Source: an uncultured delta proteobacterium
GTDB taxonomy: Bacteria > Myxococcota_A > Polyangia > Fen-1088
Assembly: GCA_963796685.1 (NCBI GenBank)
Contig: CAWCMR010000025.1
Span: 1,504,001-1,568,000 of the forward strand
Direction: 5' to 3'
Length of the DNA: 64,000 bases
A model generated the notes under the pieces. That model was given only the letters and a program-made list of their open reading frames with translations. It had not been told where the DNA came from and ran no database searches. Below are positions 35,986-39,396 of the stretch, in pieces. Every line of letters begins with the position of its first letter. The stretch's first letter is position 1. The translations under genes and the position numbers were made by a program.

Positions 35986-36778
35986 GATGGGAACCCTCAA
36001 AGGGTTCCCAAACCCTCCCGCGCTCTGGCGGAGCCAGGCGAGGGCGAGGGCGAAGCCCGAGGTGGAGGTAGGGTGGGCAGGCGGGTCCCGAGGCCCGGCT
36101 CCGCCAACGCGGAAGATGGGAACTCCCCCTGAAACCACCTCTGAAACACCTCGCCCCGCGCAGCGGGGAGAGGTCGCCGAGCGCAGCGAGGCGGGTGAGG
36201 GGTAGTCACCTTTCACGCCAGAAGGATCCGGTTCTCGCTCCTCACCTTGTGGTGCCCCTCACCCTGTCCCTCTCCCCGGCTGACGCCGGGGCGAGGGGAC
36301 CTGCCTGTTGGATCCCTCCACGAGGACGCGATCTTGTGGAACCGCCCGAACGCCGTCTCGTGCCGAGCGCAGCGAGGCGGGTGAGGGGTAGTCACCTTTC
36401 ACGCCAGAAGGATCCGGTTCTCGCTCCTCACCTTGTGGTGCCCCTCACCCTGTCCCTCTCCCCGGCTGACGCCGGGGCGAGGGGACCTGCCTGTTGGATC
36501 CCTCCACGAGGACGCGATCTTGTGGAACCGCCCGAACGCCGTCTCGTGCCGAGCGCAGCGAGGCGGGTGAGGGGTAGTCACCTTTCACGCCAGAAGGATC
36601 CGGTTCTCGCTCCTCACCTTGTGGTGCCCCTCACCCTGTCCCTCTCCCCGGCTGACGCCGGGGCGAGGGGACCTGCCTGTTGGATTCCTCCACGAGGACG
36701 CGATCTTGTGGAACCGCCCGAACGCCGTCTCGTGCCGAGCGCAGCGAGGCGGGTGAGCATCTGTGTTCCTAGTCAAGG

Positions 36779-37729
36779 TCAAATCTCCGTGGTTTGCCAG
36801 CGCGAGTTAGAGCGCAACATGGCGTTGAGGATGGTGAGCAGCTTGTGCATACAGGCGACGATGGCGACCTTCTTGAGCTTTCCTGCGGCGACTAGCCGAG
36901 CGTGGAATCTGGCGATGACTGGGTTGAAGCGTATGGCAGCTAGGGTGGCCATGTAGAGGACGTTGCGGACTTCGGTGCGGCCGCCCCAGATGATGCGGCG
37001 GCCGCGCAGGGTGCCGCTGTCCCGGTTGAGTGGAGCAACACCGATGAGGGCTGCGATCTGCTTGCGGTTGAGGGTTCCAGTCTCAGGGGCATGGGACAGG
37101 ATGGTGCGAGAGAGGACGGGGCCAGCTCCTGGAACGCTTTGGATGATGTCGTCCTTGGCTTTCCAGACCGAGGAATTGCCGATGGCCGTGTCGATGTCGT
37201 TGTCCACCTCGTCGAGCTGCTTTTCGAGGTAGGAGATGGTCCTGCGGATGGCCCTCTGCACGCGCTTGGAGGGAGGGTCAGCGCTGAGACGGTTTTTCTC
37301 GGCAGTGATCATGTCGACCACCTGCCTGCGCCTGGCGAGAAGGGCGGCAAGCTCCTGGGTCTCTGCGTCGACAGGCGGGCGGACGGGTGGCCGTATTCGT
37401 TCGGCGAAAAGAGCGATCATGGCGGCGTCCAGGGCATCGGTCTTCGCGAGACAGCCGTTGGCCTTGGCGAAGTCGCGAACGCGTCTGGGGTTGACGACGA
37501 CAGCGGGCAGGTTGGCAGCGAGGAGCGCCGCAAGCACGCGTCGTTCGAGTCCACCGGTGGCCTCAAGAACGATGAGGGTGACGTTCAGGGCGGCCAACTC
37601 TTTGCAAAGAGCGCGCACCGTGTTGTCTTGATTGGGGGTGGACCAGGCTCTTTTGGCCGGCAAGACATGGACGTCGAGCGTGGCCTTGGAGACGTCGATA
37701 CCTACGAATGTGTCAGCTGTTGGTGTCAC
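36779..37729 (-). CDS. IS110 DEDD bridge recombinase
   Basis: GIDVSK, LEATG, KTDALDA, SVPGAG, GVAP..RDSG; GTG start with AAAGGAG RBS. Confidence 0.95.
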
Positions 37730-37739
37730 GGGCTCCTTT

Positions 37740-37995
37740 CGCGAAGGACTTCTGCTCTTGGTATGCCCAGCCTTGCGGAGTATGCGGGCTCGAGGCCCTC
37801 TCATCTGTTCGGGCTGCTTGTGAAAGTCGACACGACGACCCTCGCTCACCCACGGTCTTTGTGACCTGAGGGGCATCGGTCTGTCGTGCCGTTGAATCTC
37901 GTCGTGCTCCTTCGCCTTTGGGGGCGAGCGTAGCCCAGCTTTGCTGGGCGAAGCGAGGGGGGACCGGGGGACTGCGAGCGAGAGCGAGCCAGTCC
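37740..37995 (-). ncRNA. Predicted IS110 bridge RNA (ends approximate)
   Basis: Internal loop carrying GAUGCCCCU and GGGUGAG (target guides); second region carrying ACAGAUG and GCAAG (donor guides), matching the element's ends. Confidence 0.8.
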
Positions 37996-39396
37996 CCCGT
38001 AAGATACAAGGGGTAGTCACCTTTCACGCCAGAAGGATCCGGTTCTCGCTCCTCACCTTGTGGTGCCCCTCACCCTGTCCCTCTCCCCGGCTGACGCCGG
38101 GGCGAGGGGACCTGCCTGTTGGATTCCTCCACGAGGACGCGATCTTGTGGAACCGCCCGAACGCCGTCTCGTGCCGAGCGCAGCGAGGCGGGTGAGGGGT
38201 AGTCACCTTTCACGCCAGAAGGATCCGGTTCTCGCTCCTCACCTTGTGGTGCCCCTCACCCTGTCCCTCTCCCCGGCTGACGCCGGGGCGAGGGGACCTG
38301 CCTGTTGGATCCCTCCACGAGGACGCGATCTTGTGGAACCGCCCGAACGCCGTCTCGTGCCGAGCGCAGCGAGGCGGGTGAGGGGTAGTCACCTTTCACG
38401 CCAGAAGGATCCGGTTCTCGCTCCTCACCTTGTGGTGCCCCTCACCCTGTCCCTCTCCCCGGCTGACGCCGGGGCGAGGGGACCTGCCTGTTGGATTCCT
38501 CCACGAGGACGCGATCTTGTGGAACCGCCCGAACGCCGTCTCGTGCCGAGCGCAGCGAGGCGGGTGAGGGGTAGTCACCTTTCACGCCAGAAGGATCCGG
38601 TTCTCGCTCCTCACCTTGTGGTGCCCCTCACCCTGTCCCTCTCCCCGGCTGACGCCGGGGCGAGGGGACCTGCCTGTTGGATTCCTCCACGAGGACGCGA
38701 TCTTGTGGAACCGCCCGAACGCCGTCTCGTGCCGAGCGCAGCGAGGCGGGTGAGGGGTAGTCACCTTTCACGCCAGAAGGATCCGGTTCTCGCTCCTCAC
38801 CTTGTGGTGCCCCTCACCCTGTCCCTCTCCCCGGCTGACGCCGGGGCGAGGGGACCTGCCTGTTGGATTCCTCCACGAGGACGCAATCTTGTGGAACCGC
38901 CCGAACGCCGTCTCGTGCCGAGCGCAGCGAGGCGGGTGAGGGGTAGTCACCTTTCACGCCAGAAGGATCCGGTTCTCGCTCCTCACCTTGTGGTGCCCCT
39001 CACCCTGTCCCTCTCCCCGGCTGACGCCGGGGCGAGGGGACCTGCCTGTTGGATCCCTCCACGAGGACGCGATTTTGTGGAACCGCCCGAACGCCGTCTC
39101 GTGCCGAGCGCAGCGAGGCGGGTGAGGGGTAGTCACCTTTCACGCCAGAAGGCTCCGGTTCTCGCTCCTCACCTGAAGCACCTCGCGCTGCGAAGCGGGG
39201 AATGTCCCGGCTGACGCCGGGGCGAGGGGACCTGCCTGTTGGATCCCTCCACGAGGACGCGATCTTGTGGAATCGTTCGAACGCCCCTCGCGCCGAGCGC
39301 AGCGAGGCGGGCAAGGGCACGGTCTGTCGTGCCGTCGAATCTTGTCGTGCTCCTTCGCCTTTGGGGGCGAGCGTAGCCCAGCTTTGCTGGGCGAAG

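Follow-up and report, generated by a model that had tools for sequence, protein, structure and literature searches.

An IS110-family element with a predicted bridge RNA in a Polyangia repeat array, and left-end fragments that cluster in its target-guide DNA

The element and its place in the repeat array

The window analysed here is a stretch of 64,000 nucleotides from an uncultured delta proteobacterium of the class Polyangia (assembly GCA_963796685.1, contig CAWCMR010000025.1, positions 1,504,001 to 1,568,000 of the forward strand), and our subject is an IS110-family element on its minus strand at 36756-38010, which measures 1253 bp plus one duplicated CT and lies within a unit of a 186-bp tandem array. 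On the same strand the element carries a recombinase gene (36779-37729), a predicted bridge RNA upstream of it (37756-37900) and, between this RNA and the left end, a structured leader of about 108 nt (37901-38008). Tandem Repeats Finder places 3.1 units of the array at 36176-36757, on the element's right-hand side as read on the minus strand, with ACTACCC-CT-CACCC at each unit junction, and another 7.0 units, the last of them degenerate, at 38009-39311.

The element interrupts one 186-bp unit precisely. On the minus strand the intact repeat reads GACTACCC-CT-CACCCGCC (in the longer uninterrupted unit, GGTGACTACCC-CT-CACCCGCCTCGC). In the occupied unit, GACTACCC leads into the left core dinucleotide CT (38010-38009), which ends the left target flank, and then into the element start TGTATCTT (longer reading TGTATCTTACGG); on the other side the element end ACAGATG (36764-36758; longer reading GGAACACAGATG) is followed by the right core CT (36757-36756) and then by CACCC, the beginning of CACCCGCC. 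The termini TGTATCTT and ACAGATG are not inverted repeats.

Joining the two ends would place a TTGACT box from the right end (36776-36771), which stands 13 nt before the last base of the element, 17 nt upstream of a TATCTT box from the left end (38006-38001), with AGGAACACAGATGCTTG as the spacer. These predicted -35 and -10 boxes form a promoter only after end joining. In relatives of the element, the left ends begin TGTAT or AGTAT, and TTGAC occurs in 41 of 59 distinct right-end tails, by manual reading in 39 of them at exactly 13 nt from the end. The exceptions in position are L039 and L033, at 6 nt, and the window's own tail holds a second TTGAC, at 13.

The genome of the window (G000; 7.3 Mb in 26 contigs) has six full copies that are 100% identical over all 1255 bases, and a seventh that is split at position 57/58 by 2075 bp. 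CT forms the core at all 12 left and all seven right junctions in this genome; the flank reads CCC-CT at 11 of the 12 left junctions and CT-CACCC at every right one. The fourth base before the core is G in 10 of the 12 left flanks, where CCC or CTC comes next, and A in two, and the fifth is T in two. All three additional copies found on metagenome contigs sit at GCCC-CT. The insertion sites lie within a dispersed repeat module of about 56 bp that carries the target GCCC-CT-CACCC and is similar to repetitive extragenic palindromic (REP) elements; by coordinates, module matches occur within about 400 bp of each of the six full copies. Free CCCCTCACCC sites number 183 in the genome, against about 54 expected from base composition, and 121 of them have G in front. 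To judge by its sequence, the element is intact and has recently been active.

These results bear on an original prediction, made from the sequence of this stretch alone, that a complete IS110 element with a CT core at both ends lies at 36756-38010. All of its coordinates that we checked are right, and the flanks of the other copies agree with the core and with most of the native target it proposed, nnTRCCC-CT-CACCC: the CCC, the G or A at the fourth base and the CACCC stand, whereas the T fits only two of 12 flanks. The donor ACAGATG-CT-TGTAT and the promoter TTGACT-17-TATCTT that it expected from end joining can both be read in the sequence.

The 186-bp unit is itself a mosaic of two dispersed modules, the one of about 56 bp that holds the insertion target and a GC-rich hairpin module of about 48 bp. 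Each has dozens of matches in the genome, and their tandem arrays have periods of 75, 180, 186, about 250-263 and 372 bp. Such arrays lie at 36176-39311 in the window and elsewhere in G000 at C25:1059742-1060882, C11:98831-99765, C21:64238-66153 and C15:369319-371643; inside the array of period 75 no match to the element was found. Target-to-target exchange by the recombinase was considered as a possible origin of the array and set aside. The Rfam family Antizyme_FSE gave a match in every repeat unit at 27.8-29.9 bits, below its gathering score of 40, and was set aside as a chance match to a GC-rich hairpin. Free sites that fit both target guides perfectly over 14 bases, GATGCCC-CT-CACCC, occur at G000 C5:354715 and C25:1597155, neither of which is a left-end junction, and by their sequence these two should be the best free landing sites of the genome.

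The recombinase

The recombinase gene (36779-37729, minus strand) begins with GTG, has the ribosome-binding site GAAAGGAG 5 nt upstream, and encodes 316 amino acids followed by a stop codon. Its product, a DEDD/Ser recombinase with an N-terminal RuvC-like DEDD domain and a C-terminal Tnp domain that bears the catalytic serine, matches the Pfam domains DEDD_Tnp_IS110 (PF01548, 2.7e-23) and Transposase_20 (PF02371, 9.6e-17), scores 212.7 bits against a cutoff of 140 with the NCBIfam model NF033542 ("IS110 family RNA-guided transposase"), and in phmmer searches of the PDB aligns over residues 8-308 with both ISCro4 (2.9e-31) and IS621 (1.2e-26). Residues D12, E56, D98, D101, S238 and G239 stand opposite D11, E60, D102, D105, S241 and G242 of IS621, whose chain numbering in the printed alignment is offset by 2; passages of PMC11208158 describe these IS621 residues as essential. 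Only 22 bases separate the stop codon (36779-36781) from the right core, and the RNA model match lies upstream of the gene. This short 3' gap and the upstream position of the guide RNA rule out the IS1111 group, in which a seekRNA lies downstream of the gene.

A predicted bridge RNA with two stem-loops

The extent of the predicted bridge RNA, 37756-37900 on the minus strand, is that of a match to a covariance model, R1, which scores 123.2 bits and is the model's sole match in the window. It contains two stem-loops. The target-binding stem-loop (37831-37888), recognised from sequence, fold and covariation, consists of an outer stem (37888-37878 with 37840-37831), the left target guide (37877-37869), an inner hairpin (37866-37854), the right target guide (37851-37845) and the first handshake base, C, at 37844. 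The donor-binding stem-loop (37765-37814), recognised from sequence, alignment and covariation, has an outer stem of GCCC (37814-37811) with GGGC (37768-37765), the left donor guide ACAGAUG (37808-37802), an inner stem (37798-37795 with 37789-37786), the right donor guide region GCAUACUCCGCAAG (37785-37772) and the handshake base G at 37771. The stem CACGACAGACC...GGTCGTCGTG and the inner hairpin GGTC-ACAAA-GACC appear in both the minimum-energy and the centroid folds.

A protein-guided scan for relatives yielded 80 loci. When the upstream regions of 17 relatives were aligned with MAFFT and folded with RNAalifold, two stem-loops with internal loops emerged, with 25 pairs of which 20 show compensatory change, and R1 was built on this alignment. 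The model gave 77 matches in 81 sources. All 76 locus matches share their strand with the recombinase match, and the one match in the window is upstream of its gene. In the R1 alignment, 92.3% of cells are paired, compared with 69.1% after shuffling and 33-48% with the 3' partners slid, and 21 of 26 pairs show compensatory change.

Guides that follow their flanks and ends

All four guides can be read against the DNA that they would pair with. In the first loop, GAUGCCCCU reads in the sense of the left target flank and the core, and its last six bases are used; the coding bases of the left target guide are GATGCCCCT (37877-37869). The right target guide, GGGTGAG (37851-37845), is over its full seven bases the exact reverse complement of CTCACCC. 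In the donor loop, ACAGATG (37808-37802) is identical to the last seven bases of the element, and the right donor guide, AUAC...CAAG, is a discontiguous complement of the whole CT-TGTAT, with its GCAAG part at 37776-37772 and a bulge three bases longer than in the nearest relatives.

Among the relatives, guide columns were taken from the model alignment. The ends of each element were found without reference to the guide being tested: the left donor 7-mer marked the right end, and the motif (N)T-(T/A)GTAT marked the left. Of 77 rows, 62 have both a right target guide and a right flank, and in the 33 distinct combinations that they give the guide agrees with the flank at a mean of 4.24 of 5 positions, 18 combinations being perfect; shuffled pairings average 1.48 and none of 2000 shuffles scored as high, and here as elsewhere the relatives are not independent samples and shuffle counts are not probabilities. 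The core is matched in 31 of the 33, and one element with a TT core carries AA in its guide. For the left target guide, 42 distinct combinations from 54 of 77 rows, scored with a one-base register tolerance that the control received likewise, average 4.5 of 7 compared with 3.1 when shuffled, and again no shuffle in 2000 scored as high. This mean is an underestimate, since by manual reading several low scores are register or boundary errors (for example L059, L068, L069 and L061).

The donor guides vary with the ends in the same manner. The left donor 7-mer recurs at the right ends of relatives with matching variants (ATG, ACG, TTG, TCG, TTA), and in the right donor guide GCAAG accompanies left ends in TGTAT and GCTAG those in AGTAT. 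Handshake pairing, for which the first handshake base of each loop was scored, crosses between the partners. Where the right target guide ends, the next base pairs with the seventh base of the donor in 39 of 39 combinations and with the seventh base of its own target in nine of 35. For the right donor guide, the base that follows pairs with the target's seventh base in 39 of 43 and with that of its own donor in nine of 45.

With respect to the guides, too, the original prediction largely survives. The left-end stem-loop with its GGTC-ACAAA-GACC hairpin is present in the folds and its stems covary in relatives, and GGGTGAG is the exact complement of CT-CACCC that it was said to be, in a guide that covaries with the right flank. 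The proposed resemblance of GATGCCCCT to the left flank holds for the last four bases and the core (GCCC-CU) and fails for the initial GAU; likewise, the claim that the guides match the surrounding array is exact for CT-CACCC, whereas ACTACCC is a poorer left match than the GCCC of most occupied sites. ACAGATG does copy the seven bases of the left donor but lacks the core, AG being next, and GCAAG does pair with CTTG(T) but is only part of the full guide AUAC...CAAG.

A Chloroflexota-labelled subgroup of the relatives (L042, L044, L047-L053, L060, L062, L081) has GT as its left core and CT as its right core, and its left target guides end in GGU. Here the two junctions of a single element naturally have heterologous cores.

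Weighing the bridge-RNA interpretation

We consider it highly probable that 36756-38010 is an intact, recently active IS110-group element that uses bridge-RNA-guided recombination in the manner of IS621. At the level of sequence it appears to show the features that define the IS110 group, and the protein, the RNA, the guide matches, the CT core, the junction promoter and the covariation across relatives all fit the IS621 bridge RNA architecture that had been predicted for it. By analogy with the work on IS621, the element would be excised as a circle whose joined ends form the donor ACAGATG-CT-TGTAT together with the sigma-70 promoter TTGACT-17-TATCTT. This junction promoter would drive both the RNA and the recombinase, and a recombinase tetramer with its RNA would pair target with donor and exchange strands at the CT core. 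That the system is "reprogrammable", as the original prediction had it, we infer from natural covariation and from the IS621 experiments.

Several observations weigh against this interpretation. The energy of the single-sequence fold is not distinctive (z -1.28 and -1.97), and because it is unremarkable the support for the structure was taken from covariation. The pair counts of R1 come from an alignment fitted to the model and are biased toward it; the independent MAFFT/RNAalifold result agrees with them. After the left donor guide comes AG and not CU, so that the core is unmatched on that arm, and the eighth base in relatives is usually C. At the natural sites in this genome only GCCC and the core CU of the left target guide are matched, its GAU being inconsistent in the 12 flanks; because the left-guide match spans just four bases, specificity may depend on more, for example on a target stem-loop as reported for ISPpu10. 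Contigs from RNA libraries of two studies cover 37785-37936, which does not prove transcription. No circle junction was seen in contigs from four sequencing runs, and contigs drop rare forms.

It is very improbable, in our estimation, that the structured left end is a mere leader or an unrelated small RNA, perhaps one read from the other strand such as sX15, and that the guide matches are leftovers of target duplication. The Rfam scan of the window matched no bridge RNA family, and it gave a weak plus-strand match to sX15 at 37750-37901 (29.4 bits, gathering score 55, E 0.061), which could speak for such a view, as could strong sX15 matches opposite to the model strand in Xanthomonadaceae relatives. 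Against it, covariation of the guides with flanks and ends is seen in the gene's orientation in dozens of distinct combinations, and the architecture fits that of the solved IS621 RNA as presented in passages of PMC11208160 and PMC11208158. Moreover, the right target guide cannot be a remnant of duplication because it is the complement of the flank and not a copy.

The sX15 matches are an observation in their own right. This family (RF02234, a Xanthomonadaceae small RNA) scores 107-149 bits on the bridge-model DNA of Xanthomonadaceae IS110 loci, on the opposite strand, with the strong matches on the minus strands of L088 (1309-1466), L090 (1309-1466), L091 (64-222) and L095 (1-133). Either the sX15 model describes a bridge RNA locus from the wrong strand, or these loci also have an antisense RNA; sX15 is unmentioned in the best-ranked literature found for an overlap of sX15 with IS110.

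Left-end fragments that stop in guide-coding DNA

Seven left-end-only fragments of the element, and no right-end-only fragment, occur in the genome of the window. In a search of 40 related genomes we found a congener, G003, with eight full and 13 partial left ends. Altogether 17 of the 20 left-end-only fragments, four of the seven in this genome and all 13 in the congener, end at element positions 131-143, which are the 13 bases that encode the left target guide; those of G003 end at positions 138-143. The G003 partial left ends have CT as their left core in 12 of 13 cases, CC in none, and CACCC to the right in all. Every right-hand breakpoint lies within 3 bases of the core. Thirty other internal sites share 5-8 identical bases with the right-junction window, and none of them is a breakpoint among the 20 fragments; among the unused look-alikes are ACAGATG, 7 bases long, at position 203 in the DNA that codes for the donor guide (AG follows), and an 8-mer at 1171.

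In two of the four guide-region fragments in this genome the sequence is ...GACC GATGCCC-CT-CACCC, which fits both target guides perfectly over 14 bases; a third reads GATGCCC|ACCC, and the fourth, which is degenerate, is the old left-end-only copy in the window. On the minus strand, this copy comprises element positions 58-140 at 39315-39396, with a junction to a degenerate repeat unit near the coding bases of the left target guide, and positions 1-57 at 41472-41528, with the left flank GGGAACC-CT, which an intron splits from the remainder. The other three fragments end at positions 45, 63 and 108, at C-runs or CCTCGCT.

Taken over both genomes, the 17 guide-region fragments fall into a few junction classes. 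GATGCCC-CT-CACCC occurs twice, with one variant. GATGCCC-CT followed by the TGTAT start of another copy has three matches at two distinct loci, since two of the matches share 400 of 400 flank bases, and in one fragment GATGCCC-CT is joined to the element's own 3' part, giving a mini-element with both ends. GATGCCC|ACCC is found four times, with two near variants, ACCGATG-CT-CACCC twice, and two junctions are degenerate. At locus L135 the order is [repeat left half]-CT-[left end 1-141]-CT-[full element]-CT-CACCC[repeat right half], and at L136 one G003 partial left end is nested in another left end. A single-nucleotide polymorphism (SNP) of the left end is present in eight of the 13 G003 partials and in none of the 14 full left ends of the two genomes, and the same junction type occurs on both of its alleles.

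In a scan of metagenome contigs the exact self-target junction had no match, and a shorter left-guide string matched three contigs, all of them intact elements; because only intact elements were found, this collection gives the left-end-only form no support. A joint from 36568 to 37871 in a DNA contig is the GATGCCC|ACCC left-end junction of the genome mapped onto the array. Partial matches in two further genomes were uninformative, since both of those in G043 stop at contig ends and reflect assembly breaks, and the partial matches in G042 are diverged relatives. An excess of left-only over right-only fragments does not hold as a rule either, as G001 has a right-end-only fragment spanning element positions 892-1255.

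Internally deleted forms of about 175-200 bp that keep both ends were also observed, namely L099 (G001:C2:825779-825953) and L138 (G003:C43 around 75159-75360). Their flanks are normal, CCC-CT and CT-CACCC, and they are candidate non-autonomous derivatives.

How the fragments may have arisen

The DNA that encodes the left target guide is a left half-target with core (GATGCCC-CT) because the guide, by construction, reads like the target. We are evenly balanced on whether, in this lineage, the element's own recombinase uses this guide-coding DNA as a recombination site. If it does, the GATGCCC-CT of resident copies could serve as an insertion point for new copies and give the tandem arrangement of a left end followed by a full copy. 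Deletion or partial excision could be anchored there as well as at the overlapping ACCGATG-CC, which resembles the right end ACAGATG-CT in six of seven bases, and such events might shed left-end-only derivatives of 140 bp; the core mismatch of CC with CT, resolved either way, would yield GATGCC-CACCC and GATG-CT-CACCC. As far as the junction sequences go, these three registers (half-target, right-end look-alike and core mismatch) would explain all of the junction classes. Two facts weigh against self-targeting: a crossover at CTCA (4 nt), GATGC (5 nt) or GCCCCT (6 nt) can be drawn for every type of junction as well, and the clustering of left-end-only forms has been seen in two genomes of one genus only.

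The first of these facts underlies a rival account in which the left-end-only and tandem forms result from slippage or short-homology recombination rather than from the recombinase, aided by a strong DNA hairpin at the target stem-loop. According to this account the short repeats exist because the guide must resemble the target. Microhomology is available in the form of CTCA for GATGCCC-CT-CACCC, GATGC for ACCGATG-CT-CACCC and the six-of-seven block GATGC(C/T)C for GATGCCC|ACCC, and the tandem of left end and full copy amounts to a 143-bp tandem duplication at GCCCCT. That three of this genome's seven fragments stop at other points (45, 63 and 108) shows that generic deletion also occurs. Against slippage, the 30 other sites that share 5-8 bases are never breakpoints, the unused 7-mer precedes AG and not a C-pyrimidine core, the right-hand breakpoints are at most 3 bases from the core, and one junction type recurs on both alleles of the left-end SNP. 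Passages of a preprint (10.64898/2026.08.31.748434) also state that one half-site plus the CT core suffices for recombination by IS621 in vitro. We regard slippage as a tentative explanation with a real but minority chance of being correct.

A second rival retains the recombinase and changes the event. It proposes that the short ...ACCGATG forms are non-autonomous mini-elements of about 140 bp, excised as partial circles from the internal right-end look-alike and re-inserted at new GCCC-CT-CACCC sites by the recombinase in trans, and not deletions in place; on balance we find this rather unlikely. In its favour, partial left ends outnumber full ones in G003 (13 to eight), all of these partials occupy normal target sites with CACCC at the right, one of them lies inside another left end (L136), and eight of the 13 share a SNP that is absent from all 14 full left ends. 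Passages of a survey preprint on IS110 elements (10.64898/2026.08.14.744561) report partial circles that reuse the left terminus, recurrent internal endpoints and fragments that have re-integrated. Yet the shared SNP is also an allele of full elements elsewhere (L017, L101-L103) and may mark an older subfamily, and the copies that share it differ in junction type, which argues for separate origins. In addition, the left cores are CT in 12 of 13 and never CC, though re-insertion of a donor with a CC core might have left some.

Self-targeting of guide-coding DNA was not found in the literature searched on IS110 bridge-RNA self-targeting or on IS110 remnants, partials and MITEs (miniature transposable elements with inverted repeats). 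In the passages of the survey preprint that were searched, guide-coding DNA is not named as an internal site. Were the pattern general, guide-coding DNA would be a built-in self-target that shapes the copy-number dynamics of IS110 elements, the recurrent internal endpoints of partial circles would be explained, and the RNA expression cassettes of bridge editors would carry half-sites for their own guides. If the fragments were made by the recombinase, they would be a natural record of half-site recombination, with the bridge RNA gene targeted by its own product.

The leader and a group II intron

Aside from these questions, the leader between the left end and the bridge RNA has a distribution of its own. 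Its first 85 or so bases (element positions 5-89, window 37921-38004) form a dispersed repeat, sometimes tandem, in related genomes of the same family, where matches of 73-98% identity occur without a bridge RNA or gene at 8-16 per genome in G013, G016, G021 and G023 (for example, G013:C25:80233-80549). In one RNA library the summed depth of contigs over the leader stretch is very high, and in one contig the stretch is tandemly repeated. This repeat may be a family of old left-end relics, or a host repeat that the element has taken up.

The 2075-bp insertion that splits the old left-end copy is a group II intron on the plus strand at 39397-41471 (Rfam group-II-D1D4-3, 79.7 bits), which lies antisense in the leader of that copy and is not part of the element. 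Its reverse transcriptase/maturase open reading frame spans 39676-41340 (TIGR04416, 368.9 bits), and the genome of the window has 11 copies of the intron at at least 99.86% identity, one of them at G000 C11:75849-77923. Twice the intron sits antisense in an IS110 leader at position 57/58, once of these in an otherwise identical full copy, and there it would come between the junction promoter and the bridge RNA. In several of 10 intron flanks, both leader sites among them, a short hairpin ends a few bases ahead of the point of insertion. Insertion just after a hairpin is a habit of class C introns.

Relation to known systems

Bridge-RNA IS110 elements have reportedly been recognised since 2024 and are said to have been surveyed by the thousand. 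The element described here belongs to this described family, and NCBI models already name its protein as RNA-guided. Within the family it is a clean natural case, from a soil lineage of high GC, in which all four guides can be read along with the first handshake base of either loop; its right target guide is seven bases long, and 183 target sites are free. Some 70 relatives with covarying guide and site provide natural evidence for the programming rules. The element itself adds little to this picture. The base-precise clustering of left-end-only and nested copies in guide-coding DNA is the part that could matter more.

Two preprints, in the passages searched, come closest to the left-end fragments (10.64898/2026.08.31.748434, 10.64898/2026.08.14.744561). 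Like the interpretation proposed here, they describe recombination at sites that fit one guide arm plus the core, internal endpoints that recur, reuse of the left terminus, full or partial modules in tandem and partial fragments that have re-integrated. A difference is that here the breakpoints can be placed to the base within guide-coding DNA, which those passages do not name. In its choice of sites, the element is like ISPpu10 of Pseudomonas putida, a member of the IS110 group that, as described in part of the literature, homes into many copies of one intergenic repeat. ISPpu10 is named among IS110-group examples in passages of PMC11208160, forms a junction promoter according to passages of PMC12288879, and requires a target stem-loop according to portions of a preprint (10.64898/2026.03.19.712850). 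The best match among solved structures is ISCro4 (PDB 9t56), likened by its protein alone (E 2.9e-31, residues 8-308).

The most informative comparison is with IS621. As given in passages of Durrant et al. (PMC11208160), pairing in IS621 is with the bottom strand for the left guides and with the top strand for the right ones; it takes in the core, which the left donor guide too matches, and the right donor guide is discontiguous; in passages of PMC11208158, the handshake guides pair with core-adjacent positions of the partner DNA and not of their own. Our element has the same protein domains and catalytic residues, a CT core, a discontiguous right donor guide and handshake bases, and its left end holds, upstream of the gene, a predicted RNA whose two stem-loops carry internal loops. 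Its left guides likewise have the sense of the top strand and its right guides are complementary to the top strand, a promoter is predicted across the circle junction, and the target lies in repetitive extragenic elements. The right donor half of IS621 is probably also TGTAT, as it is here; the corresponding IS621 string was looked for in the text searched and did not occur there. The two elements nevertheless differ in several respects. They are distant in sequence (phmmer E 1.2e-26, residues 8-308), and the right target guide has seven bases here compared with a native four in IS621. The present element also uses about four bases of its left target guide plus the core, has a left donor guide without a core match, carries an additional structured leader of about 108 nt, and resides in a high-GC host.

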